Shown here in pieces: positions 7,601 to 31,798 of a stretch of DNA of 32,000 nt (its first letter is position 1; every line of letters starts with the position of its first letter). The position numbers and the translations under genes are program-made. The notes below the pieces were generated by a model. It was given only the letters and a program-made list of their open reading frames with translations. It was not told the DNA's origin and searched no databases. The stretch comes from Candidatus Micrarchaeum sp. (GTDB lineage: Archaea; Micrarchaeota; Micrarchaeia; Micrarchaeales; Micrarchaeaceae): positions 750,001 through 782,000 of the forward strand of contig NZ_CP060530.1 of assembly GCF_016806735.1 (NCBI RefSeq). Direction: 5' to 3'.

Positions 7601-7782
7601 CTTACATAAGTGCTGACGATGACACGGTTTCAACGATAAGAAAGTTCTACGAGCAGTTTGCCAAGGACATAAACGCGAAAAAGGTGGAGTTCGTTCCGGA
7701 AATACCGGAATCGCTGAAGCAGGTTCCGCTCGAGCTTATGGATGCAAAGCTCAGGATCGCGATCAAAAAGCCAGGGATGTGA
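4621..7782 (+). CDS. ileS: isoleucyl-tRNA synthetase
   Basis: 1053 aa. Class Ia blocks are present: FYFLDGPPYTTG, GYDVHGLPIE, the editing-domain signature WTTTPWTLPANVAIAV, HIAPGHG, WCISRQRYWGIPIP, CxxC zinc knuckles and the anticodon-binding region. GTG start at 4621 (TTG at 4633 also possible). HIGH and KMSKS are divergent (see findings). Confidence 0.93.
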   Translation: MLAVLDLNANELEMLNYWKETDVLGRLRARNKGRKPFYFLDGPPYTTGDLHPGQMWVKTVKDITLRYRRMKGYDVRDIPGYDVHGLPIENKVEKKLELKSKQDIEDKIGVGEFIKQCRAYVEAGIGRMDSDFERFGITLDFAHPYIPFNKQYIETGWNIFKQISDKGLLYRDTKATLYCPHCQTSVSQGTMEAEYMQDNDPSIAVPFKVVKNDSKARISLADGDYSLLIWTTTPWTLPANVAIAVNPKELYVLAKFGDKNLIVAKKRLDDTAAMLDASPVVLEEFYGSELEGMAYANPLEENSPKQKELRKYHKVILSGELVTMDDGTGLVHIAPGHGLEDYNLGKKLGLPIFCPVDGKAEYTKDAGKYEGMKVPEEANKAVMEDLKSMGVLLYKGSITHSYPHCWRCDSKLIFIATPQWFFNISKVKKKLLSENSKVSWHPAEAMQWQADVLKSSPDWCISRQRYWGIPIPIWECEKCGDTKVIGSVEELARHATSKEKVEHLDDLHRPYIDDIELKCEKCGGSMRRVKDVTDVWFDSSIASRASIDSEKEFERLFPIDYIIEGKDQLRGWFSGLLKISVLAYGKRPFKNVGVDGMLLSEDGREMHKKLGNYIAVADLLKITNADSFRIWSSGHTPWLDLSFNRSEIRDSERTINVLYNAANLIDEYSKLIGAKPKWTLPKAEGLEREELWILSRVQSLIEKVTEALENYEAHNAVNALKEFISDDFSRFYLKVAKKKLLGYDKGMQKKVLNVVSYCLNTVLTLASPVIPFTSDYIALRMLKSVDDSVSMQKWPKPKPELINKELESTFDMVKESISALLNNREAAKVPLRWPVKQALIETTSDEVYNTLSRMSDIIGDYTNSKEVLVKKVSSVGLEAKPQFQRIGPEFKQNASFIAKSITEANPEEIKAALDSGGKYAVHTEKGVFDIGPEHVIISEFNTSEGMKKFKYGYAKVDSEISSELADEAFLRELERRIQMERKAEGLKRSDKIEAYISADDDTVSTIRKFYEQFAKDINAKKVEFVPEIPESLKQVPLELMDAKLRIAIKKPGM

Positions 7783-7784
7783 GA

Positions 7785-8351
7785 ATGCGTGCGATGAGCA
7801 CGGAAAGTTCCTATAAAAGCGTCGAGAAGCTTCTTTTTTCCAAAGACAGGAATCTTTACGTCATATCCCCGTTCGTCAGCACGTATTACCTAAAAGTCCT
7901 GAAGAGAATATCATCGAGAAAGAATGTCTATTTGATAACAAGCGAAGCCGCGTTCAAGAAATCAATAGAAATATCCGGATCTTATAAATTCGGAAGGCCG
8001 AAGGTGGCTCATGCCGCCATAGTGCTTGCAATGTTTGCTGCAGCGTATCTGGTAAGCGAATATATAGCCGCACTTATTTTTCTGGATGCAATGGCCGCAT
8101 GGTGCATGTTTTATACTATAAGTATGCCAAGCAGGCACAAGAAGAGCAGGATGCACGTCAGGGTCGTAAGGGGCAACTTCGTGCACGAAAAGGTTTACAT
8201 ATCCGATTCTATGGCAATAACCGGCAGCGCAAACCTTACCTATTCCGGCATGCACAAGAATACCGAAAGGATAAGCTTAATAGATGACGGGAAGGAGATA
8301 AGAGAACTCCGAAGGCATTTCGAAGAGTTATGGCACAAAGCCGGCAATTAA
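7785..8351 (+). CDS. PLD-superfamily (single HKD motif, Nuc-like) protein with a central hydrophobic segment
   Basis: HEKVYISDSMAITGSANLT equals HxK(x)4D(x)6GSxN. A hydrophobic stretch AAIVLAMFAAAYLVSEYIAALIFLDAMAAWCMFY precedes it. The ORF-track start (GTG 7779) overlaps the ileS stop; the ATG at 7785 is chosen here. Confidence 0.6.
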   Translation: MRAMSTESSYKSVEKLLFSKDRNLYVISPFVSTYYLKVLKRISSRKNVYLITSEAAFKKSIEISGSYKFGRPKVAHAAIVLAMFAAAYLVSEYIAALIFLDAMAAWCMFYTISMPSRHKKSRMHVRVVRGNFVHEKVYISDSMAITGSANLTYSGMHKNTERISLIDDGKEIRELRRHFEELWHKAGN

Positions 8352-8404
8352 GCCTTATCGGGAATCTACATAAAGCATAATAAACTTGTTTGCCTCTTGT
8401 ATTT

Positions 8405-9268
8405 ATGGCGTACCGGCAAAAGGTTAATATATCTGAAAAAAGAAATGTTTATAATGGTGGTGCAGTGGGTGGTGGGCATGGACCCAATTATAAGGGTCAA
8501 AGCGCATTGGAATATCTGATAACTTACGGTTGGGCAATACTCATAATAGTAGCAGCGGTCGGAATGCTTTATTTTTACCTCATAGTGCCCATGTCAGTGC
8601 CTCCAAACAATTGCGATTTCATAGTAGGAGTATCATGCTCGAACTATAACGTTGCGATTAGCCCTGCTTCGAAGAATACCGCAAATGTAAGCCTTATGCT
8701 TGAAAATCCTGAGTACTACCCAATAGAGGATCCTGTGATGGTCGTCGGAGTAGGCACTAGCAATTACAGTTCGGCATGCTCGCCCTCGTTCGTCAATCCT
8801 GGAGCTACTTATGTATGCTCAGCCCAGATGCCAGACAGTTTCGGCAACCACCTCAAGGCAAATGTCTATATAAAAGAGTATAACTGCGGATTGAGCAAGT
8901 ATGGAGAATTCAACGGAACGTGCGCCGATCCCCCAATGCAGATTTACAAGGGGGCGATATACGACACATTCGACCAAAACATAACAGTCAGGCCTACAAA
9001 GATGGAAATAAGCCCGGCTGCGGCAACCGTTGCAGTAGGGCAGGATTACAGCATAAACAGCACTTTTTATTTTGCAGGAGTACCTACCCATGACATAACC
9101 ATAAACTATACGCTAAACAATACCGACGCCAGGCTTGAAAACGCCAAGGGTTTCACTGGCTCTTCCGGCAACGCCACTGACACCATTTATGCGGCACATG
9201 CAGGAACCGTAAAGGTTACCGCATCCTTTGACGGCTACAGCGCCAACGCCATAATAACGATAAGCTAG
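8405..9268 (+). CDS. archaeal type IV pilin-like / secreted protein with class III signal peptide and C-terminal Ig-like domain
   Basis: KGQSALEYLITYGWAILIIVAAVGMLYFY is a typical archaeal prepilin (class III) signal, with cleavage after G and then a hydrophobic helix. The C-terminus (GTVKVTASFDGYSANAIITI) resembles a Big_2-like beta domain. The start is uncertain (TTG 8390, ATG 8405, GTG 8465). Confidence 0.6.
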   Translation: MAYRQKVNISEKRNVYNGGAVGGGHGPNYKGQSALEYLITYGWAILIIVAAVGMLYFYLIVPMSVPPNNCDFIVGVSCSNYNVAISPASKNTANVSLMLENPEYYPIEDPVMVVGVGTSNYSSACSPSFVNPGATYVCSAQMPDSFGNHLKANVYIKEYNCGLSKYGEFNGTCADPPMQIYKGAIYDTFDQNITVRPTKMEISPAAATVAVGQDYSINSTFYFAGVPTHDITINYTLNNTDARLENAKGFTGSSGNATDTIYAAHAGTVKVTASFDGYSANAIITIS

Positions 9269-9433
9269 GCGTTTTTGCTTTCCTTTTTGTTTTTCCTCGA
9301 CAAAATAATTGAGTTTCGAATTTTTCCAACGGATTTTGGCATTATTTCTAAATTCTTATTAGAAAGTTCCACAAAACCAATAAATATAACAAAATCCAAA
9401 TAATTATGTAGCGAGAAGCGAAGTTGATTCCAT

Positions 9434-9736
9434 ATGGAGTCCAAACAAAAACGTGGGGTACAAGAACTGGGGGATAGCATAAAACAGCTCGCAGATGAAA
9501 TATGCGACGAGCAGCAACTGGAGCAGTCCTTTGCAAGCGAACTGCAGGCAACCGTGGACCTTGGGGCCATGATTGCAGCAATAATAAAAGAGGAACCGGA
9601 CCAGAATACAAAAGCAGCGATATCCAACGCGATAGCGCAGAGCACAATACGCATGGTGAAAAAGGCGAACGCGATAAGGAAGAAAAAGCAGATTAGATTC
9701 GGCCCAGCCGCAGTCGTAATAGCTGCAAAGGAATGA
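9434..9736 (+). CDS. hypothetical charged/helical protein (100 aa)
   Basis: ATG-initiated ORF with protein-like composition, followed by a perfect hairpin and a long T-tract on the + strand. The competing 222-aa minus-strand ORF is Cys/Ser-rich and runs into the tRNA gene. Confidence 0.4.
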   Translation: MESKQKRGVQELGDSIKQLADEICDEQQLEQSFASELQATVDLGAMIAAIIKEEPDQNTKAAISNAIAQSTIRMVKKANAIRKKKQIRFGPAAVVIAAKE

Positions 9737-9754
9737 ATCTGAGCTAGCAAATAC

Positions 9755-9834
9755 GGTGCCGCGATTGCGGCACCATTCACCCTCATCATTTCAGCTTTGT
9801 TTATTATTTTTTGTTTTCTCTTTTTTTGCGTTTT
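9755..9834 (+). terminator. hairpin plus oligo-T terminator candidate
   Basis: GGTGCCGC-GATT-GCGGCACC (9755-9774) is a perfect 8-bp stem. T-rich runs follow at 9795-9834 (TTTGTTTATTATTTTTTGTTTTCTCTTTTTTTGCGTTTT). Confidence 0.4.
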
Positions 9835-9894
9835 ACAGAAAGCCATTTTAAGCTTATCAATAAAACTTATTCTTGAATGCCCTATTGTAAATAG

Positions 9895-9967
9895 GCGATC
9901 GTAGTCTAGCCTGGTAGGACTTTGCCCCTCCAAGGCAAAAACCCGGGTTCAAATCCCGGCGATCGCA
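9895..9967 (+). tRNA. tRNA-Gly (anticodon UCC), no intron, no encoded CCA
   Basis: Hand-folded cloverleaf:
- acceptor GCGATCG/CGATCGC;
- D stem GTCT/GGAC (one G-U pair);
- anticodon stem TTGCC/GGCAA with loop CCTCCAA;
- 4-nt variable loop;
- T arm CCGGG-TTCAAAT-CCCGG;
- discriminator A.
Position 33 is C rather than U (see findings). Confidence 0.8.
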
Positions 9968-10045
9968 CTTGTTTTTAATACAGTACAATTGCTCCTGAGC
10001 AAGTGCTTGATTAAGACAGCAAACTAAAGCTATATATATTTAAAT

Positions 10046-10063
10046 TACTATAATATTATAGTA
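10046..10063. promoter_or_regulatory. perfect 18-bp palindrome (candidate operator) in an AT-rich promoter region
   Basis: TACTATAATATTATAGTA is its own reverse complement. It ends 23 nt upstream of the ATG at 10087 and is flanked by TATA-like runs (10031-10044 and 10066-10077). Confidence 0.35.
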
Positions 10064-10086
10064 AAATATATATAAATGGAATCACG

Positions 10087-11106
10087 ATGAACAATGAAGA
10101 AAGAAAGGTATTGAGCTATCTTTCCGAAGAGCTTGGCTACGGAGGCAATATACTTAGCATGGTGAACGCCATGGGCAAAAAATACGGGAACACTTATTAT
10201 CCGAACGTATATAATGCCATAATGGGATTGGAAAAGAAGGGAGTGGTGTCGATAATCAAAGAAGGCAACAATCGATTGGTAAGGCTGGCGCTTGATAATC
10301 CCTTCTCAATTTATTACATTGGCGAGGCAGAAAGCATGAAGGCCTCGGGCACGGATATTGGCAGTGAAATAGCCAATGCGCTCTTGGAGCTTGCTTTGGG
10401 ATTCGATATCATAACCATTTGCATATTGAGATACAAGGAATATATCAAAATAGGCAGAATGGAAATTTTAATCGTTGCCGGATCGCACGATCAGGACGGA
10501 AAGCTTGCTGCTGCAATATCAAGCGTGGAATCTATGCATAATTCCAAGATAGACCAGATAGTACTTACTCCGCTTGAACTTTCGTCAATGCTTGAGGGCA
10601 ACGAATTGAACAGAATTAAGGAGCTTATAGGGGATAAGAGCATATTTTACAATAGCGAGGGCTTTTGGGAAATTGTCAGAAAGTACAAGCTCGACGGAAA
10701 TCGAATAAATCAGGAAAGATTCCCTGAGAAATTGACGAGGGCGCAGCTCGCTTACAATTATAACAGGTTCGGATACGCATTATATGAGGATATTGAATCT
10801 GGAACTAAAATCGCACTTGAAGATGTTATATTCCTGATGTCCGCAAGCGAAGAAGCGAGGATTAGATACGGAGCGATAGTTCTGCTGTACAAGAATTGCA
10901 GTCGGCTGAATACCTCTTACTTATATTACCTATTCAAGAGGCATGATGAGCTAGGCACATTGAAAGGCATGCTTGAATCCCTAAAAGATTTTTACATTAG
11001 CAGGGATTGGCAGGGAATTGAAATGCTTGTAAAGACAATACAGGATAAGAAGCCAAGGATTTATGATAAGAACCTTATTAAAAAGTACATTGAGCAATAC
11101 TGTTGA
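10087..11106 (+). CDS. winged-helix DNA-binding protein with a large C-terminal domain (AbiEi-like antitoxin candidate)
   Basis: N-terminal wHTH pattern (YPNVYNAIMGLEKKGVVSIIKEGNNRLVRL) followed by about 250 aa of unknown function. Its stop lies 4 nt before the ATG of the nucleotidyltransferase-like gene. Confidence 0.5.
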   Translation: MNNEERKVLSYLSEELGYGGNILSMVNAMGKKYGNTYYPNVYNAIMGLEKKGVVSIIKEGNNRLVRLALDNPFSIYYIGEAESMKASGTDIGSEIANALLELALGFDIITICILRYKEYIKIGRMEILIVAGSHDQDGKLAAAISSVESMHNSKIDQIVLTPLELSSMLEGNELNRIKELIGDKSIFYNSEGFWEIVRKYKLDGNRINQERFPEKLTRAQLAYNYNRFGYALYEDIESGTKIALEDVIFLMSASEEARIRYGAIVLLYKNCSRLNTSYLYYLFKRHDELGTLKGMLESLKDFYISRDWQGIEMLVKTIQDKKPRIYDKNLIKKYIEQYC

Positions 11107-11110
11107 TTCG

Positions 11111-11626
11111 ATGACAAGAGTTTCGAAAACTGGCTTATTGTCGATTTTGTACGTGTTCGATGAGCGGTTGCCTCATAAAATACTGCTTGTCGCAGTTGGA
11201 GGCACTGCCATGACCATGCTAGGCATAAAGGCTTCTACAAAAGACATAGATTTCAACATACCGGAAAAGAAGGATTACGAAGAATTTGTAAGGTTGTACA
11301 AGGCGATAAGCCCAGGAGTGGCAATCGATTATTACCCAAACAACACCGTTTTTACAGAAGTCTTGCCCGAAGATTACTTAAGCATTGCAAGCGATTACAA
11401 GTCCAATTTCGAAAATATAAGAATTAAGGTATTGAACCCTGTCGATATAGTTTGTTCGAAAATCAGCAGGTGCGATGAAGCCGACATAGAAGACATAAAA
11501 AGCTGTATAAAAATTTATAGTTTAAAGAAAAGCGAGGTTGCGGCGAGGGCCAGCTTATACGCAAGAGTAGGCAGCGATGAAATTTTTCAGAGCAACCTGA
11601 ACTTTATTTTAGAAAACTTGTTTTAG
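11111..11626 (+). CDS. minimal nucleotidyltransferase-fold protein (AbiEii / DUF6036-like)
   Basis: LLVAVGGTAMTMLGIKASTKDIDFNI matches the GGxAxxxxGxxRxTxDIDf NTase signature. A later block, LNPVDIVCSKISRCDEADIEDI, also fits. The ATG at 11111 is preferred over the upstream in-frame start at 11063. Confidence 0.5.
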   Translation: MTRVSKTGLLSILYVFDERLPHKILLVAVGGTAMTMLGIKASTKDIDFNIPEKKDYEEFVRLYKAISPGVAIDYYPNNTVFTEVLPEDYLSIASDYKSNFENIRIKVLNPVDIVCSKISRCDEADIEDIKSCIKIYSLKKSEVAARASLYARVGSDEIFQSNLNFILENLF

Positions 11627-11686
11627 TTGAGCGGCACCAGTAAGGCTCTGCCATTAGAGCTCGTGCGGCCAAAAAGGCAAACCGAA

Positions 11687-12301
11687 TCACGGGGGCGAGA
11701 GCAAGTGCTGCGGGACTGCCGCTACTCCCACTACTATCGCAAGAAGCGAAGCGAGCAGGAGGAATATCCAGAACAGCATTAGCAATGTAGTGTAGGTGTT
11801 GGATGCCTTGCTCTTGGCTGGCAGCCTGTCGTATATGAGCGTTGCCGGATACGTAAACACGCCAGCCAAGCCGAAACCTATGTAAAGCCCGAGCATGGCA
11901 ATAGGGCTGGATGTCATCTTTATGAAGTAAGCGCTGAAGCCGTAGTATATTGCAAGAAGCCCTGAGAATAGGGCGAATATGCCAACGTACTGCATGTTCT
12001 GCCTAAACCACAAAGCTATTGATATGCCGGTTATTGCTATGCCTATCAGCAGAAAAGGATCGTAGAAAAGAGTGTTGTAGCTTCCGGGGAGCGGCCATGT
12101 CATTTCTCCGAATAGGCCCAGTATGAGCATCATTATGCCCAGAAGCCCTAGAGGCACTGCCCCGGGCCTCATTGATTCTTTTATGCCCTTGACCCCGTTG
12201 GCCTTATAGTACCTGTAAGCAGAAGCCGTAGTGTACAAAGATACTATGCCCGCGAGCGCGAGCATGAAGAGCTCCAATGCCAAGTCGTCAATGAAAACCA
12301 T
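11687..12301 (-). CDS. polytopic membrane protein (about 6 TM segments), function unknown
   Basis: 204-aa ORF made almost entirely of hydrophobic helices, with mid-GC codon usage. Confidence 0.6.
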   Translation of the reverse strand: MVFIDDLALELFMLALAGIVSLYTTASAYRYYKANGVKGIKESMRPGAVPLGLLGIMMLILGLFGEMTWPLPGSYNTLFYDPFLLIGIAITGISIALWFRQNMQYVGIFALFSGLLAIYYGFSAYFIKMTSSPIAMLGLYIGFGLAGVFTYPATLIYDRLPAKSKASNTYTTLLMLFWIFLLLASLLAIVVGVAAVPQHLLSPP

Positions 12302-20853: not shown

Positions 20854-20961
20854 GCCCTGGTAGCTCAATGGCAGAGCGCCTGTCTTGTAAACTTCTTGAA
20901 AAGAAGTTTAATCAAGAACCAAGATAACAGGAGGTTGAGGGTTCAATTCCCTCTCAGGGCT
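20854..20961 (+). tRNA. tRNA-Thr (anticodon UGU) with a 36-nt intron at the canonical 37/38 position
   Basis: Hand-folded cloverleaf:
- acceptor GCCCTGG/TCAGGGC (one G-U pair);
- D arm GCTC-AATGGCA-GAGC;
- anticodon stem CCTGT (20879-20883) / ACAGG (20927-20931);
- loop CTTGTA...A;
- variable loop AGGTT;
- T arm GAGGG-TTCAATT-CCCTC;
- discriminator T.
The intervening sequence (about 20890-20925) contains its own hairpin ACTTCTT-GAA-AAGAAGT, and CTTG/CAAG pairing is compatible with a bulge-helix-bulge motif. Confidence 0.85.
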
Positions 20962-21242: not shown

Positions 21243-23075
21243 ATGGCGAAAAATAAAGAAGATTCTAAATCAACAAAATTAGCAGATCATATCGAAGAGA
21301 CCGTAAATGATGAAGAAGAAATAGAAGCAGTAGAACTACCACAACAAGAGGCATTTTTCAAGATGCCTAAAAGGTTTGGTACAATACCTGATGTATCAGA
21401 GAAGCCCTTGGGATGGGGAAAGGGAGGATATGAGCATCTTTACCCACACGTAAAATTACCAACTCAAAGATTAGAAACCATTAGATTTAGTAGAAAAGGA
21501 GAACCCAATAAATTATATTGGGGAGACAATCTCCATATAATGAGGACATTGCGTTCTGAATCCATAGACCTTATTTATATAGACCCTCCTTTCTTTTCTA
21601 GTAGGAATTACAATATGATATTCCAAGACCAAAACGAGGTAATGACATTTGAGGATATATGGGATGGAGGGCTTCCAACTTACCAGATATGGCTCAATGC
21701 AAGACTTATAGAGATGAAGAGATTACTCAAACCTACAGGTTCTATATATGTGCATCTTGACTGGCACGCCGTACATTATGTTAAAATTGAGATGGACAAG
21801 ATATTTGGATATGATAGATTTTTAAATGAAATAATTTGGTATCATGGATTTAGGGGCACTGAAGCAAAGGCACAGTATCAACGAGCACATCAGACTGTTC
21901 TTGTGTATACAAAATCTAATAACTACTATTGGAATCAACAATATCAAAGTTATAAGGACCCAGATATGAAACGCTATAATAAAACTGATGAGAAAGGAGA
22001 AAGGTATGCCTTAATAAAAAGACGTCATACAGATGGATCTATTTATTATGGAAAAACTTATCCTAAAAAGGATGGGAAAAGAATAAATGATGTAATAGAA
22101 ATGCCAATCTTAGCATCCACCAATAAAGAGAGGGTAGGGTATGATACACAAAAACCAGAAGCACTGATAGAATTGTTATTAAGGACATCTTGTCCACCAA
22201 ATGGAATTGTGGCGGATTTCTTCTGTGGTGGAGGGACTACTCCGGCAGTTGCTCAAAGACTTGGTAGACACTGGATAGCAAGTGATATATCAAGGATAGC
22301 GGTTGAAGTGACAAAGGGACGTATATTAAGATTATTGAAAAGTGAGAAAGGCACTCAGACAAACTTTGCCAAAGTCCCTAACATAGAAGTATGGTCTTGG
22401 GGTTTTTATGATGCAGATAAACTGCAAGATATAAGTGATGAAGAATTTAGGGATTTTATAGTTAGGGCTTATGGTGGTAGGCCTACTTCAAATGAGTATA
22501 CTAGCGGTTCTAAAAATGGAATACCACTCCTCGTTGGGAATAAAAACCGCAGAAATCAAATCACTAAAAAAGAGGTATTAGAATTTGCTAAATATATACA
22601 GGAAAATTACGAACTTCATAAGGCAGGCACCATACTTGCATGGGGATTTGCGGATAGTGCAATAAAGGCACAAGAGGCACTTGCGAACATAGGAGCAGAG
22701 ATAGACTTTGTAAAGATAAAGACAGTAAGAATAGGTTCGTATGAGTTTATAGAGGATGTTATAACCAAAAACAAAGAATATAAGAATGTATTTAGGTTTG
22801 TCTTTCCTCCAGAAGTAGTACTGCATGTAACTAAAGAAAACGGAGAATTTAGTTTTGACTTTTCAGATTCTGTATCTCTTAACAATGGAAAAATAATTAA
22901 TATACAAGCAGACTTCGATTTTGACGGGAAATTTGCACCATCAGAAGGATACATATTCAATCCGAATACTATGATTCTCAAATACAAATTTAATTTAATA
23001 GGAAAGAAAAAAATAGCCTTCAGAGTAGAAGATGATCACGGTGGCGAAAAACTAGTTGTCAAGGAAGTGGAATAA
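21243..23075 (+). CDS. DNA methyltransferase, beta-class (N6_N4_Mtase family; probably N6-adenine), Type III Mod-like, with a roughly 230-aa C-terminal extension
   Basis: Motif IV IYIDPPFF (D114, nt 21582) lies upstream of motif I FFCGGGTT (nt 22218-22241). This order is the beta permutation. DPPF rather than SPPF favours m6A. GGTGAT RBS before the ATG. Confidence 0.88.
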   Translation: MAKNKEDSKSTKLADHIEETVNDEEEIEAVELPQQEAFFKMPKRFGTIPDVSEKPLGWGKGGYEHLYPHVKLPTQRLETIRFSRKGEPNKLYWGDNLHIMRTLRSESIDLIYIDPPFFSSRNYNMIFQDQNEVMTFEDIWDGGLPTYQIWLNARLIEMKRLLKPTGSIYVHLDWHAVHYVKIEMDKIFGYDRFLNEIIWYHGFRGTEAKAQYQRAHQTVLVYTKSNNYYWNQQYQSYKDPDMKRYNKTDEKGERYALIKRRHTDGSIYYGKTYPKKDGKRINDVIEMPILASTNKERVGYDTQKPEALIELLLRTSCPPNGIVADFFCGGGTTPAVAQRLGRHWIASDISRIAVEVTKGRILRLLKSEKGTQTNFAKVPNIEVWSWGFYDADKLQDISDEEFRDFIVRAYGGRPTSNEYTSGSKNGIPLLVGNKNRRNQITKKEVLEFAKYIQENYELHKAGTILAWGFADSAIKAQEALANIGAEIDFVKIKTVRIGSYEFIEDVITKNKEYKNVFRFVFPPEVVLHVTKENGEFSFDFSDSVSLNNGKIINIQADFDFDGKFAPSEGYIFNPNTMILKYKFNLIGKKKIAFRVEDDHGGEKLVVKEVE

Positions 23076-25087
23076 TGAAACAAGTAACAATGCCAAATCT
23101 TTTTGTTAAATACGAAAGAGATTACGAAGAGTGGAAGAATAGCGGCTATAATGGATGTACAACAGAAACATTAGAATTCATAACACATTTACTACATAGG
23201 ACAGAGAAACAGCTATGGGCACATCAAAAGGAGGCAATACTAAGAGTAATATACCTGTACGAGATTAAGAAAGGAGATTTGCAGAACAGGTACTTGTTAA
23301 AAATAGTTACGGGTGGTGGTAAAACCATAATAATATCTGCAATAATAGGATGGCTCTTTTATGCACACTCAGAAGACGTTCATAAGATATTAATACTTGT
23401 CCCAAATTTGATAGTAAGAGACAGATTGGAATATGACTTTATAAGAACCGCAGAAAAGAAGAATACAGTATTTGAGACTTGGGATATAACCCCAGATAAA
23501 AACTTAAACAGCAGGCTAAGCGCAGCAGTATTAGAAAGCGGTTCTACACCTCAAAGGATGCTGGAAGTTGACATAATAATTTCAAATATTCAGGAGTTAT
23601 ATACCCGTAATACAAATACGGCAAGCAATTTAAACTACATACTCAAAAACTTTGATACTCTGGCAATATTCAATGACGAAGCACATAACACAAACGCTGC
23701 TGAATTTGATCACATACTGAAATTACTAAATGATAAAACAATATTGAGACTTGATACTACAGCAACCCCTGAAAGAGCGGATGGGACTTATCCAAATTCA
23801 AACTTAATATATGACTTTGATATTGACAGTGCATTGACAGCAGACAGACCAATAATAAAAGATATCGTAGTGTACAGACCAGATACAAAACTATTGGAGA
23901 TAACATATATTAATGCCACAACAGGCGTAAAAAAGAAGATTGACGAACTTGAACCCGAATTTGAGGAGGCCGAGAAAAGACTTAAACCATTTAATTGGAT
24001 TATGGATGATGCACCATTGGACCTATTGACAGACATTTCTTTGGATAGATTGAAAGAAAAAGAGAAGGAGGCGAAAGCAAATGGAGACTATAAACCAATA
24101 TTGTTTGTAGTAACTATGGGAATAGACGAAGCAAAGAAAGTTCAACAGTTTCTAGAAAATAGAAGGGGAATAAAAACATTATTAGTGACAGAAGAGTCAG
24201 GGGATAAAGACAGAGAATCTGCAAGAAGCCTAGGTAGTACAGATAGTCCTTATAAAGCAGTAGTAAGCGTATTCATGTTAAGAGAGGGATGGGACGTTCC
24301 AGAAGTATCAGTTATATTGTTGCTTAGGAGAATAATATCACCTGTCTTCGGTCAACAAATAATAGGAAGAGGGCTTAGAAAGATAAATAAAACAAGTTTA
24401 GAAAGGGAAACTCTTTCTGTTGTAGACCACCCGCAGCTTCAACATGATTGGCTTTGGAAAAAAATGAGAGTAACAAAGACAATAAATGATGTTATGCCAA
24501 ATGAGGAGATAAAAATACCAAAACTACCAAGAAGCGAAGACCATATACCACGCCTTGAACATCCAGAAAACCTTATATCAATCAAACCATATTCTGATAA
24601 AGAATTTGAGGAGAGATTAAACAGATTAAAAGATAGCCTTAGTGATGCACAGCCCGATAAAGAATGGAGAAAAACTTTGAATAACTTTACTTATGATACA
24701 ACCAAGTATTCTATAACAAAACTAAAATTGGAGAGCATACGCAAAAAATATATAGGTAAGAAATTTGGGGAAGAGGTAGACTATGATGTTAGTACATTTA
24801 GCGAGGCTGAAGATATTCAAGATATAAGTGCTGATGATTTAAAGAAGCAGATACTTTCAATAGTAGAATACATCCTAGAAAAGAACAATGTAAGTGAAAT
24901 GGACAAGGGTAGATTTTATAAAGTTCTCCTTGATATGATTTCTAAAAGGTTCTTAAGTTCCAAGCCGTTATCGCAATCAACGCCAAAAGATAGGATATTA
25001 ATCTTCAATAATTTAGAAAACATAGCAGACGCATTTACGCTGCCTGTCGTAAAAGGGATAATAGAAGATGGTGCATTGGATGAGTGA
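23075..25087 (+). CDS. SF2 DEAH helicase, Type III restriction Res-subunit-like, lacking a nuclease motif
   Basis: Motif I VTGGGKT (nt 23309), motif II FNDEAH (nt 23675), motif III TTATP, motif V LREGWDVPEVSVILLLRR and motif VI QQIIGRGLRK. The ATG overlaps the MTase stop by 1 nt (TAATG). Confidence 0.85.
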   Translation: MKQVTMPNLFVKYERDYEEWKNSGYNGCTTETLEFITHLLHRTEKQLWAHQKEAILRVIYLYEIKKGDLQNRYLLKIVTGGGKTIIISAIIGWLFYAHSEDVHKILILVPNLIVRDRLEYDFIRTAEKKNTVFETWDITPDKNLNSRLSAAVLESGSTPQRMLEVDIIISNIQELYTRNTNTASNLNYILKNFDTLAIFNDEAHNTNAAEFDHILKLLNDKTILRLDTTATPERADGTYPNSNLIYDFDIDSALTADRPIIKDIVVYRPDTKLLEITYINATTGVKKKIDELEPEFEEAEKRLKPFNWIMDDAPLDLLTDISLDRLKEKEKEAKANGDYKPILFVVTMGIDEAKKVQQFLENRRGIKTLLVTEESGDKDRESARSLGSTDSPYKAVVSVFMLREGWDVPEVSVILLLRRIISPVFGQQIIGRGLRKINKTSLERETLSVVDHPQLQHDWLWKKMRVTKTINDVMPNEEIKIPKLPRSEDHIPRLEHPENLISIKPYSDKEFEERLNRLKDSLSDAQPDKEWRKTLNNFTYDTTKYSITKLKLESIRKKYIGKKFGEEVDYDVSTFSEAEDIQDISADDLKKQILSIVEYILEKNNVSEMDKGRFYKVLLDMISKRFLSSKPLSQSTPKDRILIFNNLENIADAFTLPVVKGIIEDGALDE

Positions 25088-25415
25088 AGGAGTATATAAG
25101 TCACCTAAAAAAAGCCCCTACTCGTGTGAGATATACGATAGTGAGTTTGAAAGGGAGTTCATGGAAGAGCTTGAGAAAGACCCGGAGGTTAAGAAATGGA
25201 CAAAAAATCATGGGATTAGAATACCTTATGTAAATATAGACAGTAAAGTAGCTCATTATAATCCTGATTTTATTGTTGAATATGAAGATGGAACACAGGA
25301 ACTAATAGAAATAAAGGGCAAAAATAATCTCACTGAAATAATCAAGCGTAAGCAAAAAGCAGCCAAAGAATGGTGCGAGAAGAGAGGCATAAAATACAGG
25401 CTAATAACACTGTAA
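25080..25415 (+). CDS. PD-(D/E)xK endonuclease domain protein (Type III Res C-terminal / TnsA-N-like)
   Basis: YNPDFIVEYEDGTQELIEIKGK gives D-x13-E-x-K. The upstream SEFEREFMEELEKD helix and the downstream KQKAAKEWCEKRGIKYRLIT match the layout of Res C-terminal nuclease domains. ATG 25080 overlaps the helicase stop (ATGAGTGA); ATG 25068 is also in frame. Confidence 0.65.
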   Translation: MSEGVYKSPKKSPYSCEIYDSEFEREFMEELEKDPEVKKWTKNHGIRIPYVNIDSKVAHYNPDFIVEYEDGTQELIEIKGKNNLTEIIKRKQKAAKEWCEKRGIKYRLITL

Positions 25416-25647: not shown

Positions 25648-27693
25648 ATGATTATTATGGCTAGAAGGGCAGTAAATGACATGGCAAAAGAATTTGTGGA
25701 TGAAGTAAAAGGGTTTATGGGTGATATGGGTTTTGAAAACCCACAAGGAGGTACTACTTTTAAAATAGGTGGTAAGCAAGTTGCCGCTGCGGGCGGATTT
25801 GGAAACATATATATTATAATAGATTGTGTACTTTCGCAAGAGATTGGAGATAGGGGCAACATAAAATCTAAAATAGAGGAATGGCGCGGAAATTATGAGA
25901 TTTTTAAGAATGGATTAGAGGAAGAGGATATTTTAAAAAAATATAATGATGTACGTTTAGTTATTGCAACCAAAAGAATAAGATTAAATGAGCAGGATAG
26001 AAATCTTGCTGCAGGTAACAATCCAAAAGTATATATTTGGAATGAGCAATTCTTTGAGTATTATAAAGATTTAAAAAAGAAAATAGGGAAGTATGCAAAA
26101 TATGAATTGCTTAGGGAAATTAATTTCCCGGAAGAACTAACACTTAGAGATGTACCTGCAATAAAACCTAATGGTTTTTTTGGAACGGATTTGGGAATAA
26201 ATTATTATATAGCAAGTGTAAATCCGTTAGATTTATTAAAGATATCATATGTTGCCCGAAGAGAAAGAGGAGACCAAGCCTTTTACCAAAGAATGATTAG
26301 TGAAAACAAGATTAATCAGATTGAATATTATATTAATCACAACAGAAAGCAGTTCTACAATAATGTTATAGTTGCAATAAATGATAGAGATAGGATAAAA
26401 TTTACTCCGTCAAAAGCATTGGAAGATAGACAGGAGATAGGAGAATTAACTATCGAAAAAACCACAGAGCCATTATGGATAATAGATGGACAGCATAGAT
26501 TATATGGATATGCAAAAGCAGAAGAGAAACTGAATTCAAATAGGAGTGATAGAGAAAAAAATAATAAAGAAAAAACCAATTGGAAAATCCCGGTATCTTT
26601 TGTTGTAGGACTAGACACTAAATTACAAGGAGAATTATTTATGGATATAAATACAACGCAAACATCCTTGTCTGCAGATTATATTTGGGATCTATACTCT
26701 ATTTATAATGAATCAAAATTAGAGGGTTTTATATCAAAATTAATAAAGAAAATGAATGTAGGAGATGGTTATTTTAAAGGTAAGATTTATATCCCTAGTT
26801 CCTCTATAAAAAAAGATAAAGGCCAACTTACAATTTCGAAAATTGGGCGAGCTATAAAGGAAAATAAACAGATATTCAATGAGATGATAAGTAGTAAGAG
26901 AGATGAAGAAGAGGTTAATAAAGCTTTCAGAATCATTAACACATACTTTGAATATATTAATGAGAAGAACATTGAGTATGCTAATTTCTTTAGCTCTAGT
27001 GTAGGAATCCAAACAATATTGCCGTTATTAAAAACATTTACTAATGCATACGATGGAGATGAAGATAAAGTTAAGGAATATATCGAAATATTAGTTAAGG
27101 ACCTTGATAATAGTGAATTTTACAAAGGTAAAAATTTAAAGAAAGAGTTGTCAAAAACCCTTGGAAACAAAACAACTAAAGAGGAATTTATAAATAATTT
27201 GATAAATGAAGTTAACGAGATTATTATAGATGAGGGACGCCAAGACGGACTTAAACTTTTACCAAGTAATGAATCAAAGAGTATATTTGCAATTTTAGAA
27301 AAAAAATTACGTAATTTAATAAATGATAAATTAAGCGCGATAAATAAAAATTGGTTGCAAACAAGGGGCGTAGATCGCACAAAATATGAAAATTTATTAA
27401 AAAAGGCAAAAGAAAAAACTCCTGGAGGGATCTGGGCAAAGGCTGGCTTTGGGGAATGCATAACAGTTATGAATAGGAATGATAATTGGCCTATATTTGA
27501 GAAACTATTTGTATCATTAAAAGGGTATAAAAATAAAAAAGAATTAATAGATGACTTAGGAAGAATTTATGAGTATGGTAGAATTCCAGCGTATCATGGA
27601 GATGAAAGAGAGGATAAAGTGAGTAAATATAATAGACAAGCTGCAGAAAAATTAGCAAAAAAACTTCTAACCGTTTTAGAGTCACTATCTTAA
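25648..27693 (+). CDS. DGQHR-domain (DndB/ParB-Srx-like) protein fused to a C-terminal Swt1-like HEPN domain
   Basis: FYQRMISENKINQIEYYI...NNVIVAIN...LWIIDGQHRLYGY (DGQHR at nt 26485-26499, aa 280-284). The C-terminal blocks are LEKKLRNLINDKLSAINKNWLQ, GFGECITVMNRNDNWPIFEKLF and GRIPAYH (R645-x4-H650, nt 27580-27597). About 160 aa at the N-terminus and about 260 aa in the middle are unassigned. Confidence 0.75.
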   Translation: MIIMARRAVNDMAKEFVDEVKGFMGDMGFENPQGGTTFKIGGKQVAAAGGFGNIYIIIDCVLSQEIGDRGNIKSKIEEWRGNYEIFKNGLEEEDILKKYNDVRLVIATKRIRLNEQDRNLAAGNNPKVYIWNEQFFEYYKDLKKKIGKYAKYELLREINFPEELTLRDVPAIKPNGFFGTDLGINYYIASVNPLDLLKISYVARRERGDQAFYQRMISENKINQIEYYINHNRKQFYNNVIVAINDRDRIKFTPSKALEDRQEIGELTIEKTTEPLWIIDGQHRLYGYAKAEEKLNSNRSDREKNNKEKTNWKIPVSFVVGLDTKLQGELFMDINTTQTSLSADYIWDLYSIYNESKLEGFISKLIKKMNVGDGYFKGKIYIPSSSIKKDKGQLTISKIGRAIKENKQIFNEMISSKRDEEEVNKAFRIINTYFEYINEKNIEYANFFSSSVGIQTILPLLKTFTNAYDGDEDKVKEYIEILVKDLDNSEFYKGKNLKKELSKTLGNKTTKEEFINNLINEVNEIIIDEGRQDGLKLLPSNESKSIFAILEKKLRNLINDKLSAINKNWLQTRGVDRTKYENLLKKAKEKTPGGIWAKAGFGECITVMNRNDNWPIFEKLFVSLKGYKNKKELIDDLGRIYEYGRIPAYHGDEREDKVSKYNRQAAEKLAKKLLTVLESLS

Positions 27694-28616: not shown

Positions 28617-28892
28617 CTAAAAGACCATTTCTAATCTTGCAGGTGTAGTTTTTACCCTAAAAAGCTTATGACAAGGAATGTCGCAGCAAATTATTATGTG
28701 AAACGCTATTGCCCCTGATGGTTTTGGCGGTTTTTGCGCTTATGCCGGAGATGCCGACCCTTGTGCTGCAGGCAGTGCTTACGGCCACGATATTTGAGTA
28801 CAAGACGTGGCGCTCGGCTAAGTAAGGGCTTGGCTCGCGGGCTCGCTCCGCCATCGCTCGCCCGCTCGGCTAGCCGCGCGATATATTTCAAA

Positions 28893-29315
28893 TTAGTGCT
28901 TAAAATGAAATTTATTGATGCTTTGATGATTTAATGGAGGTAATTCATCGTGATCAGCGATGTATGTGTCAATCAATAAACTTTCGTAAAGTCTTGGCTT
29001 TCCTATCAGTAAGAATGCAACCTCAATCTCGTATTTTTTAGAGAACCATTTAACGTGCTGGTTTGTTGGCTGATCTCTGCCAGGTTTCATATAGCCTCTA
29101 AAGCGGCTTTTAAAGCTTTTAGTAGTGCTGCCTATGTAAACTATATCAGATTCTCCCCTTACTCTTCCAAATTTCCTGCCGTCTTTCATCCTTATTTCAT
29201 AAACACCTGCTTTTTTATCCGCATAATCTAATATATCATCAAATGGCACCCATCCATCGAATCTTATTTTTATTCCATCCATACCTTTTACTAGATTTGT
29301 AGATAGCATATTCAC
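28893..29315 (-). CDS. GIY-YIG nuclease superfamily protein
   Basis: AGVYEIRM...DIVYIGSTTKSFKSRFRGY...YESLLI...PPLN gives GIY-like and YIG motifs, the conserved Arg, a Glu and a terminal Asn in the canonical order. Confidence 0.6.
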   Translation of the reverse strand: MNMLSTNLVKGMDGIKIRFDGWVPFDDILDYADKKAGVYEIRMKDGRKFGRVRGESDIVYIGSTTKSFKSRFRGYMKPGRDQPTNQHVKWFSKKYEIEVAFLLIGKPRLYESLLIDTYIADHDELPPLNHQSINKFHFKH

Positions 29316-30493: not shown

Positions 30494-30751
30494 GTGCACG
30501 AGATAGTCACAAACAGCATTCCGGGAAACGGACTCCTGAAGCTGCCAAAGCTGAGCTACAACCTCACAGAAGCCAAGAGGTCAGTGCTGGAGAAAATGGC
30601 GCAGAGCGAGAAAAAGAGCGTGGCGCAGATAGCAAAGGAGCTGAAGAAGACCAGGGGCATGATATACCAGCATCTCCGCGAGTTAAGGGACACCGGATAC
30701 ATTGATGAAAAATTCAACATAACCGAGGCAGGCAGGCTGGCCCTGCTTTGA
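30494..30751 (+). CDS. small winged-helix transcriptional regulator (copy A)
   Basis: SVLEKMAQSEKKSVAQIAKELKKTRGMIYQHLRELRDTGYIDE is an HTH plus wing pattern (ArsR/TrmB-like). GTG start; ends ...TEAGRLALL. Confidence 0.65.
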   Translation: MHEIVTNSIPGNGLLKLPKLSYNLTEAKRSVLEKMAQSEKKSVAQIAKELKKTRGMIYQHLRELRDTGYIDEKFNITEAGRLALL

Positions 30752-30833: not shown

Positions 30834-31487
30834 GTGTGCGGTGTTAATTTGGTAAAATATGCAGTATTGCTTGGGTATGGGCTATTTGATCGTTCAAATA
30901 TGAATTATAAGAGATACTTGGATAATTTTGCTTCTTTTGTCAATAAAAACGATATTGAAGTTGTTGTACTTTCCGGGGGACACACAAACCCTAGAAGACC
31001 CTTGGAATCCGAGGCAAGCACCATTTCAAAATATCTAGAGAGTAAAGTAAAGCGGAATACAACCATACTGCTTGAGGAAAGATCTTTGACAACTGCTCAG
31101 AACATAGAGTTTACCAAGCCATTGCTAAAATTGGCCAATGGTTCAGTGACGGTTTTTTGTGATAATATAAGGCCGCCAAAAGTCATGTGGTATGTACTGC
31201 ATTATTGGTTCGGACTTGGCAAGAGAGAAATAGAAAACTATTTTTTGGAATATTCGCTTAAATTCTATTCAAAACATTTTACCACAGAGCAAATAGGAAA
31301 AGAACTGAATAAGGGCTTGGCATATAAAAATGTCCTAGTAAAACCTTATCGCATGCGCACCGGCATCGATGACGCAATTAGTGGTCAAATTGCTTCTGTT
31401 CTAGAAATAAACTCCTTATATGATAAAAAGCTGTACTCAAAATTGATTAAGGCAGTAAAGATAAAATTTGGACTTAAAAACCGATGA
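30834..31487 (+). CDS. DUF218 / YdcF-ElyC-like protein
   Basis: VVVLSGGHTNP...SEASTISKYLES...ILLEERSLTTAQNIEFTKPLL matches the SG(G)...sEA..m..yL...E..S.nT.eN signature of DUF218. AT-rich. Start uncertain (GTG 30834). Confidence 0.6.
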   Translation: MCGVNLVKYAVLLGYGLFDRSNMNYKRYLDNFASFVNKNDIEVVVLSGGHTNPRRPLESEASTISKYLESKVKRNTTILLEERSLTTAQNIEFTKPLLKLANGSVTVFCDNIRPPKVMWYVLHYWFGLGKREIENYFLEYSLKFYSKHFTTEQIGKELNKGLAYKNVLVKPYRMRTGIDDAISGQIASVLEINSLYDKKLYSKLIKAVKIKFGLKNR

Positions 31488-31798
31488 AAATAGCAAATAC
31501 CACAAACAAACTGCAAAAGCTGAGCTACAACCTTACAGAAGCCAAGAGGTCAGTGCTGGAGAAAATAGCGCAGAGCGAGAAAAGGAGCGTGGCGCAGATA
31601 GCAAAGGAGCTGAAGAAGACCAGAGGCATGATATACCAGCACCTGCGCGAGTTAAGGGACACCGGATACATTGATGAAAAATTCAACATAACCGAGGCAG
31701 GCTGGCCCTGCTTTGAAGTTGTCAAACATAACTATTTTTATTTAATTATTGAAATTTACATACAGATGATAGCTTCAGGGACAGCTTTTCGACAATAG
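31484..31798 (+). CDS. winged-helix regulator paralogue (copy B) with a frameshifted, extended C-terminus (possibly a pseudogene)
   Basis: Residues 10-71 are nearly identical to copy A. A 4-nt deletion relative to copy A changes ...TEAGRLALL* into ...TEAGWPCFEVVKHNYFYLIIEIYIQ... The ATG overlaps the DUF218 stop (ATGA). Confidence 0.5.
   Translation: MKIANTTNKLQKLSYNLTEAKRSVLEKIAQSEKRSVAQIAKELKKTRGMIYQHLRELRDTGYIDEKFNITEAGWPCFEVVKHNYFYLIIEIYIQMIASGTAFRQ
31511..31717 (+). repeat. direct repeat copy B (about 207 bp)
   Basis: See copy A. The two copies bracket a 758-bp segment (30753..31510) that holds the DUF218-like gene. Confidence 0.85.

Follow-up and report, generated by a model that had tools for sequence, protein, structure and literature searches.

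A DGQHR-domain protein of Candidatus Micrarchaeum that combines a probably inactive nuclease domain with a predicted Swt1-like HEPN domain: a candidate defense effector

A stretch of 32,000 nucleotides from the genome of Candidatus Micrarchaeum sp. (contig NZ_CP060530.1, positions 750,001 to 782,000; referred to below as the window, with positions counted from its first nucleotide) contains a gene for a 681-residue protein with a DGQHR domain. Judged by family profiles and motifs, the protein is a member of a large and widespread family, in which a PD-(D/E)xK nuclease domain, a DGQHR domain, a helical linker and a Swt1-like HEPN domain follow each other in a single chain. The DNase active site of this copy is very probably dead, and yet the gene is maintained by selection. 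Tentatively, and with somewhat less than an even chance of being right, the protein is read as a defense effector, in which the DGQHR module would sense DNA and the HEPN RNase would be the sole intact nuclease.

The open reading frame (ORF) at positions 25648-27693 of the forward strand starts with ATG and is complete in the ORF listing. Its product is 100% identical to P0001, 'DGQHR domain protein [Candidatus Micrarchaeum sp.]', the annotated start of which lies 3 codons downstream. This label is all that the database gives, and the domain map described here now covers the full protein. An earlier note on this DNA, made from its letters alone, had given the coordinates of the ORF and had quoted the DGQHR pentapeptide (D280-R284), the QR block and the R645/H650 pair, all of which are present.

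PADLOC has no specific model for the protein and returned just weak DndB and DpdB matches. Neither the protein nor its full-length profile found anything meaningful among the PDB sequences. An AlphaFold2 model of the full protein, built on 52 full-length homologs, has a mean predicted local distance difference test (pLDDT) score of 86.6; a Foldseek search with this model against the PDB gave no match at E≤0.001. Among phage records, there was just a partial match over the DGQHR region, in Akkermansia phage Chantilly.

The N-terminal nuclease domain and its lost active site

Residues 8-160, for which the earlier note could name no motif (its segment was 1-160), are assigned from the predicted model and from family profiles to a PD-(D/E)xK nuclease domain of the Hjc/Card1/NERD/Mrr type. 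In the model, a helix (residues 9-26) is followed by β-strands 30-34, 47-51 and 54-62, by further helices and by a strand at 101-109, with pLDDT mostly above 90. This arrangement fits the PD-(D/E)xK core. Pfam matches among 84 homologous N-termini were to Hjc (42), Card1_endonuc (19), NERD (17), Mrr_cat (11) and HSDR_N_2 (6). The N-terminal family profile found Hjc (1ob8, E 0.027) and Can2 (7bdv, E 0.033) among the PDB sequences, both alignments spanning the E...D...ECK residues. Furthermore, a Foldseek search with the whole model picked out the small subunit of R.BspD6I (2p14) with a probability of 0.91.

The acidic residues of PD-(D/E)xK domains are required for metal-dependent DNA cleavage. 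In the present family the corresponding motif is E17...D46...(E/D)59-C-(K/T)61. Position 17 is E in 119 of the 135 members and V in the Micrarchaeum protein; position 46 is D in 129 members and A here. The remainder of the motif is better preserved at positions 59 (E or D in 112 members, D here) and 60 (C in 122, also C here) than at position 61, which is K or R in 68 members, T in 43 and V in this copy. The protein thus lacks the catalytic E...D...(D/E)xK combination, having V17, A46, D59 and V61 instead. Its relatives P0002 and P0003, which are 78-80% identical to it, retain both E17 and D46 (the codons are compared in Table 1). The DNase site of the Micrarchaeum copy is therefore very probably inactive, as far as can be judged from these substitutions.

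The ratio of nonsynonymous to synonymous substitution rates (dN/dS) against the 78-80% identical relatives is 0.26-0.27 overall, 0.19-0.46 in each of four segments, and 0.22 in the N-terminal domain itself. The gene is under purifying selection: since dN/dS is low in every segment, it has been maintained in spite of the substitutions at positions 17 and 46.

The DGQHR domain and the helical linker

Residues 181-441 belong unambiguously to the DGQHR/DndB superfamily, which has the ParB-sulfiredoxin (ParB/Srx) fold, as the earlier note had proposed. TIGR03187 matches residues 183-440 with 122.7 bits against a cut-off of 58.85 (E 2.3e-35), and PF14072, the DndB family of Pfam, matches residues 181-441 with 69.9 bits against a cut-off of 29.1 (E 2.6e-19). 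The pentapeptide D280-R284 lies within WIIDGQHRLYGY, and the QR block is Y213-Q214-R215. If the QR, DGQHR and FxxxN motifs are taken as defined by others (PMC4619093), all three are found in the protein, as Q214-R215, D280-R284 and F331-x3-N335. R215 is conserved in 134 of the 135 members and the other residues are invariant. The extended signatures YQR, W..DGQHR and F..IN are invariant or have at most one exception in the same set. In a Foldseek search against viral models, the central part matched DndB-like, GmrSD-N/DUF262, AIPR and ParB/Srx proteins with E-values from 4e-7 to 1e-3; among solved structures, the ParB/Srx-type fold was represented by a weak match to PadC alone.

Within the superfamily, two assignments to a specific family were considered and rejected. 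DndB proper, defined by the TIGR03233 equivalog with at least 328 bits and by linkage to dndACDE, gives 34.4 bits, and there are no dnd genes among the scanned ORFs of the window. DpdB, defined by the NF041060 equivalog with at least 300 bits and by linkage to dpdA and other dpd genes, gives 56.6 bits (65.6 bits with the DpdB model of PADLOC), and no dpd genes were found in the same scan.

The earlier note had also left residues 290-545 or so without a motif. The larger part of that region, up to residue 441, is inside the DGQHR/DndB envelope; only about 446-537, a linker that is all-helical in the model, keeps its lack of a name. The alignment to the NCBIfam DpdB model extends to residue 479, and thus into the linker, which is possibly a C-terminal helical extension of the DndB/DpdB type. 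The idea that the linker is a degenerate second HEPN domain, forming an internal pair with the C-terminal one, was rejected, the hhalign probability between the two being 0.4%.

The predicted C-terminal HEPN domain

HEPN domains are metal-independent RNases that use an Rx4-6H motif. R645-x4-H650 is the only R-x4-6-H of the Micrarchaeum protein, which has 3 histidines. Amino acid composition alone predicts 0.44 such motifs, so that the motif has no significance by itself and becomes meaningful only through its conservation, without which, according to the earlier note, the reading would fail. R645 is retained in 120 of 123 aligned members and H650 in 122 of 123.

The profile evidence comes from the homologs. 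Nineteen of 39 homologous C-termini match PF18731 (HEPN_Swt1), with a best E-value of 6.3e-6, and any unrelated Pfam family is matched by at most two; these matches are counted by E-value, the scores of single members against the gathering cut-off of PF18731 (27.5 bits) not being itemized. Single C-terminal members match other HEPN families, namely Abi_2, AbiU2, Apea and RiboL-PSP. When full-length members are used, 7 of 52 match PF18731. A separate model of the C-terminal part is all-helical with a pLDDT of 88.9. HEPN proteins occur among its weak Foldseek matches only (MtlR, 6kcr, E 2.2; PbAbiF, 8vz6, TM 0.41, E 7.9; and the toxin-antitoxin entry 7bxo), and the C-terminal profile found just chance matches to ribosomal protein S17 among the PDB sequences. 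Profile and motif thus give the HEPN assignment good support; the fold comparison does not confirm it.

Size, spread and genomic neighbors of the family

Among 1.84 billion cluster representatives (clusters at 50% identity), a profile search picked out 930 proteins with E≤1e-30 and 2761 with E≤1e-10. A scan of one genome per species gave at least 396 relatives. Eighty loci, from many archaeal and bacterial phyla, were kept, all of which encode the DGQHR domain together with the N-terminal nuclease, a recognizable HEPN domain or both; the nuclease is present in 78 of them and HEPN in about two-thirds. The family has cultured carriers, among them Paenibacillus peoriae KCTC 3763 and Cohnella sp. 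REN36.

The neighbors of the homologs are varied and include type I CRISPR-Cas, toxin-antitoxin genes, transposases and restriction-modification genes, as is typical of defense islands. DNA methyltransferases stand out among the immediately adjacent genes. The 131 adjacent ORFs of 79 loci include 19 D12, 10 N6_N4 and 2 MT-A70 methyltransferases, as well as a few DpnI, BglII and Vsr genes, and C5 methyltransferases were found in four further loci. After clustering, methyltransferases occupy 31 of 161 adjacent positions and 8 of 275 positions two or three genes away. Most of the adjacent ones share the strand of the family gene, from which they are separated by -36 to +16 bp. Overall, about a third of the family loci have a DNA methyltransferase as the adjoining gene, and linkage to methyltransferases of differing families is what is expected for a restriction-type partner.

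The long branch of the family (about 760-800 residues) has neighbors of another kind. In ten loci (Table 1), the large nuclease-DGQHR-HEPN gene is part of a four-gene cluster, the other members of which encode a small DGQHR protein (about 340 residues), a radical-SAM protein (about 540 residues) and a GHKL-type ATPase (about 520 residues). The cluster looks like an uncharacterized DNA-modification or defense module. A second, shorter DGQHR gene was also seen a few kb from the large gene at L008 (2979-4523), L060 (3655-4770, reverse strand), L054 (9292-10755), L076 (1181-2716) and L086 (606-1973, reverse strand). Since several loci hold such a second gene nearby, DGQHR paralogs tend to co-occur.

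Genomic surroundings in the window

In the window, the DGQHR gene follows three genes of restriction-modification type on the same strand (Table 1), from which it is separated by a gap of 232 bp. The first of them encodes a Mod-type methyltransferase, which is related to the N6_N4 methyltransferases adjoining family members elsewhere (blastp E-values down to 2e-17). It is followed by a Res-type helicase and by a 115-residue endonuclease ORF corresponding to the C-terminal domain of fused Res enzymes. Res is therefore split at 23075-25415 into a helicase ORF and an endonuclease ORF, which in the BPTD_3080 family (NF046055, 970 residues) are a single polypeptide. An internal ATG at 25080 overlaps the stop codon of the helicase as ATGAGTGA, so that the two ORFs look translationally coupled and not split by an obvious frameshift. 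A conserved linkage of the family to Type III restriction-modification genes (Mod plus Res) was considered and rejected: the closest relatives have other neighbors, and the methyltransferases that partner the family elsewhere are solitary.

The DGQHR gene and the three genes before it all lie in a block of low GC content (0.29-0.36) from about 21.0 to 28 kb. The left edge of the block is marked by an intron-containing tRNA gene that was missed by ARAGORN. This suggests that the block is a genomic island adjacent to a tRNA gene. A search around the block for an att-like direct repeat of this tRNA found none. A bacterial promoter and terminator scan, which is not suited to an archaeon, gave nothing above the shuffled expectation.

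Several other features were seen to the right of the block. Two small ORFs on the forward strand, at 30494-30751 and 31484-31798, share a near-identical segment of about 60 residues (LSYNLTEAKRSVLEK.AQSEK.SVAQIAKELKKTRGMIYQHLRELRDTGYIDEKFNITEAG) that looks like a winged-helix regulator. Because these ORFs flank a 217-residue ORF at 30834-31487, the pair is a local duplication. A GC-rich patch of about 200 nucleotides at 28690-28880, amid an AT-rich region, carries overlapping ORFs on both strands; it has no Rfam match at E≤1, and its folding is no better than that of shuffled sequences (z +0.4 and +1.5). Just downstream of the defense-type block, a 140-residue ORF on the reverse strand (28893-29315) has a weak match to a GIY-YIG nuclease (E 0.0015, below the Pfam cut-off).

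Table 1. Positions of the features described in the text, in window coordinates; those of the long-branch clusters refer to their own loci
Feature	Position	Strand	Basis
Complete ORF, nuclease-DGQHR-linker-HEPN protein	25648..27693	+	ORF listing; identity with P0001; dN/dS
PD-(D/E)xK (Hjc/Card1/NERD/Mrr-like) nuclease-fold domain, residues 8-160, predicted catalytically dead	25669..26127	+	model; family profiles
Codon 17, GTG = Val (GAG = Glu in P0002 and P0003)	25696..25698	+	alignment
Codon 46, GCC = Ala (GAT = Asp in P0002 and P0003)	25783..25785	+	alignment
DGQHR/DndB-superfamily (ParB-sulfiredoxin fold) domain, residues 181-441	26188..26970	+	TIGR03187; PF14072; Foldseek
DGQHR pentapeptide, D280-R284	26485..26499	+	translation; invariant in 135 family members
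Helical linker, residues 446-537, unnamed	26983..27258	+	all-helical in model
Swt1-like HEPN domain (predicted), residues 538-681	27259..27690	+	family PF18731 matches; Rx4H conservation
RIPAYH, R645-x4-H650 motif	27580..27597	+	sole R-x4-6-H of the protein; family conservation
Intron-containing tRNA gene, 108 nucleotides, left edge of low-GC block	20854-20961	+	Rfam 58.9 bits; missed by ARAGORN
Mod-type N6/N4 DNA methyltransferase, 610 residues, three genes upstream	21243..23075	+	PF01555 E 2.3e-42; PADLOC MTase_II, MTase_III
Res-type superfamily 2 (SF2) helicase, 670 residues	23075..25087	+	PF04851 ResIII E 4e-20; NF046055 BPTD_3080-family restriction endonuclease, N-terminal part
PD-(D/E)xK endonuclease ORF, 115 residues	25068..25415	+	Tn7_TnsA-like_N E 3.2e-14; RE_endonuc E 8.3e-9; NF046055 positions 839-940 of 970
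Long-branch cluster, L098 (N. aromaticivorans pNL1)	4992-11490
Long-branch cluster, L099 (Agrobacterium sp. S7/73 plasmid)	5004-11708
Further long-branch clusters: L040, L053, L054, L057, L077, L082, L083, L086

Proposed function

The DGQHR module might be a nucleotide-dependent DNA-binding sensor or switch, if it resembles its ParB-superfamily relatives DndB, GmrS of GmrSD and SspE. This sensor would license two effectors, a DNase at the N-terminus and, at the C-terminus, a metal-independent HEPN RNase, and the adjacent DNA methyltransferase of many members would probably mark self DNA in the manner of restriction-modification systems. The Micrarchaeum copy would then be a DNA-sensing protein with the HEPN RNase as its only catalytic effector, leading to RNA cleavage of the abortive-infection kind. 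This expectation is based on the replacement of E17 by V and of D46 by A, on the intact DGQHR motifs and Rx4H, and on purifying selection.

The analysis shows the domain assignments, the conservation of residues, the substitutions in the active site, purifying selection and the methyltransferase linkage of the family. Nucleoside triphosphate (NTP) dependence, DNA sensing, RNase activity and a role in defense are inferred from these. Members of the ParB/Srx superfamily have NTPase and nuclease activities, and DndB has been reported to be an ATP-dependent regulator (PMC10853773); the GmrS domain of GmrSD has been reported to be an NTPase (PMC4619093). HEPN domains fused to ParB, restriction endonuclease (REase) and helicase modules in restriction-modification contexts have been read as restriction coupled to suicide (PMC3710099, PMC3632139). 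A HEPN-only effector fits the 2013 proposal that HEPN adds an RNA-targeting, suicide-type layer in such contexts (PMC3710099). The position of the gene in a low-GC block, beside a tRNA gene and a Mod/Res pair, favors a defense role, as do the CRISPR-Cas, toxin-antitoxin, transposase and restriction-modification genes found beside its homologs.

A number of observations speak against this reading. The N-terminal segment of the Micrarchaeum protein itself matched no family in the Pfam scan. Its HEPN domain likewise had no match to PF18731 at E≤1, either in the whole protein or with residues 538-681 alone, and reached no Pfam threshold; the Swt1-like HEPN call of the earlier note thus holds for the family and finds no Pfam match in this sequence taken singly. 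A Foldseek search of the C-terminal model against the PDB gave nothing at E≤0.001, so the case for a HEPN fold is made by profile and motif. The residue following R645 is Ile here and Asn or Asp in most members. The lysine of (D/E)xK is Thr or Val in many members, including the close relatives that keep E17 and D46, so that the catalytic geometry of the N-terminal domain is uncertain even where it seems intact. The closest relatives (P0002, P0003 and P0005) have no methyltransferase or Res neighbor on their contigs of 5-7 kb, and the tie to the adjacent restriction-modification genes may therefore be fortuitous. Finally, a literature search found no experimental or biochemical study of any family member.

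Of the other explanations, the strongest, although still an unlikely one, is that the protein and a cognate methyltransferase, here the upstream Mod, form a classical restriction-modification pair. As its restriction subunit, the protein would cut unmethylated DNA and be restrained by the methyltransferase. The tightly linked, same-strand methyltransferases of varying family (D12, N6_N4, C5, MT-A70) in about a third of the loci are typical of restriction-modification modules, the Mod of the window is related to N6_N4 partners elsewhere, and the four genes share one strand and one low-GC block. However, the Micrarchaeum protein lacks E17 and D46, Mod is already served by a Res helicase and endonuclease of its own, and the 232-bp intergenic gap sets the gene apart from them. 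Furthermore, no methyltransferase lies within a distance of three genes at more than half of the loci, and the contigs of the closest relatives, which are 78-80% and 49% identical, carry none.

A modification-dependent, Type IV-like enzyme is a possibility of lower rank and is quite doubtful. Here, the ParB-like NTPase domain would recognize modified foreign DNA and activate the fused nuclease in the manner of GmrSD, to which BrxU and SspE are similar. The combination of a ParB/Srx fold with a nuclease follows the same logic, and the DGQHR motifs parallel the DGQQR of GmrS (PMC4619093). The Foldseek matches to GmrSD N-terminal and DUF262 viral proteins agree with this, many family members stand alone without a methyltransferase, and DpnI, a methyl-dependent enzyme, is a neighbor in 3 loci. 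Nevertheless, the operonic pairing with a methyltransferase in about a third of the loci is not expected of an attacker of modified DNA, and no DUF1524/HNH domain was found in the Pfam scan.

It is improbable that both nuclease-like domains are non-catalytic and that the protein, like DndB or DpdB, serves a DNA-modification pathway as regulator or ATPase, or else regulates the neighboring restriction-modification genes. DndB is reported to be an ATP-modulated transcriptional repressor (cited in PMC10853773), the protein weakly resembles DpdB (E 1.9e-15) and DndB (E 1.2e-8) in profile searches, and its N-terminal nuclease site is degenerate. The scores, however, are far below both equivalog cut-offs given above, no dnd or dpd genes were found among the scanned ORFs of the window or in the homolog neighborhoods examined, and the near-invariance of Rx4H and E-D-E across the family argues for catalysis. 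Least probable of all is a decaying remnant, acquired with a genomic island and now on course to be lost: two near-invariant catalytic residues are gone and the low-GC block was probably acquired horizontally, but the 681-codon frame is intact, dN/dS against the two relatives is low in all four segments, the N-terminal domain included, and every signature residue of the DGQHR and HEPN domains is retained.

Because the family is large, occurs in both archaea and bacteria, and is linked to several unrelated methyltransferase families, it is a candidate for a new restriction-like or abortive-infection defense module with two nuclease effectors; its interest would rise if it were shown to work as such a defense system. 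For the Micrarchaeum genome, in which the DNase half is probably inactive, only the HEPN half would be expected to act. A far-reaching extension of this, speculative and rather unlikely to hold in full, is that the family constitutes an unrecognized, widespread one- or two-gene defense system, in which a ParB-like NTPase reads how DNA is modified and governs both a DNase and an RNase, while a partner methyltransferase or the radical-SAM/GHKL/small-DGQHR module marks self. In that case, selection would have kept the Micrarchaeum copy as a naturally 'DNase-dead' variant, DNA-triggered and purely RNA-targeting, which might use the methylation mark of Mod in a DPANN archaeon.

Comparison with known systems

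The nuclease domains of the Hjc Holliday-junction resolvase and of Card1/Can2 are the closest known counterparts of the N-terminus of the family, by profile matches and by alignment over E...D...ECK. The similarity is marginal (E about 0.03 against PDB sequences), and, unlike these enzymes, the Micrarchaeum protein lacks the Glu and the Asp and is fused to DGQHR and HEPN domains.

DndB of the phosphorothioation system and DpdB of the 7-deazaguanine DNA modification system share the DGQHR superfamily (TIGR03187/PF14072) with the Micrarchaeum protein, and the helices that follow the domain partly align with DpdB. The Micrarchaeum protein is about twice as long, because of its additional nuclease and HEPN domains. 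GmrSD, a Type IV restriction enzyme (DUF262 plus DUF1524), resembles it in that a nuclease effector is joined to a ParB/sulfiredoxin fold bearing QR, DGQ(Q/H)R and FxxxN motifs (PMC4619093), and GmrSD-N/DUF262 models match it structurally in the Foldseek search against viral models. The effector of GmrSD, however, is the HNH-type DUF1524 and its motif is DGQQR, compared to PD-(D/E)xK plus HEPN and DGQHR in the Micrarchaeum protein. In agreement with this, neither DUF262 nor DUF1524 was found in the Pfam scan of the protein, which places it outside GmrSD.

The nearest precedents for the whole architecture date from 2013, and the earlier note's view that the fusion would be unusual has to be given up. 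Table 1 of Anantharaman et al. lists, for the Swt1-like HEPN domain, a fusion to 'ParB (Saro_3948), mostly active' (PMC3710099), and Makarova et al. described ParB-like/DGQHR domains fused to PD-(D/E)xK and HEPN domains (PMC3632139). Like the Micrarchaeum protein, the tabulated fusion couples a HEPN RNase to a ParB-like module in restriction-type contexts, with the same computational reading; the table entry mentions no N-terminal REase domain. A 2026 survey of archaeal 'dark' domains includes DndB_C-like and HEPN-like helical domains that may stem from this family.

Saro_3948 is probably the 769-residue DGQHR protein SARO_RS17535 of Novosphingobium aromaticivorans plasmid pNL1. In the pNL1 protein, the three modules follow each other as in the Micrarchaeum protein, with family hidden Markov model matches for the nuclease (E 1.8e-26) and DGQHR (E 8.2e-47) domains, a Pfam HEPN_Swt1 match (E 7.9e-4) and an RQYTAH motif. 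It differs from the Micrarchaeum protein in belonging to the long branch (about 770 residues), with distant similarity, and in retaining E..D..EC(R), where the latter has V17 and A46. Furthermore, its gene lies beside radical-SAM, GHKL ATPase and small DGQHR genes, and not beside Mod/Res. The architecture was thus already catalogued in 2013 and is not new. What is added here is the N-terminal nuclease domain, its probable natural inactivation in the Micrarchaeum copy, and the family-wide linkage to DNA methyltransferases.

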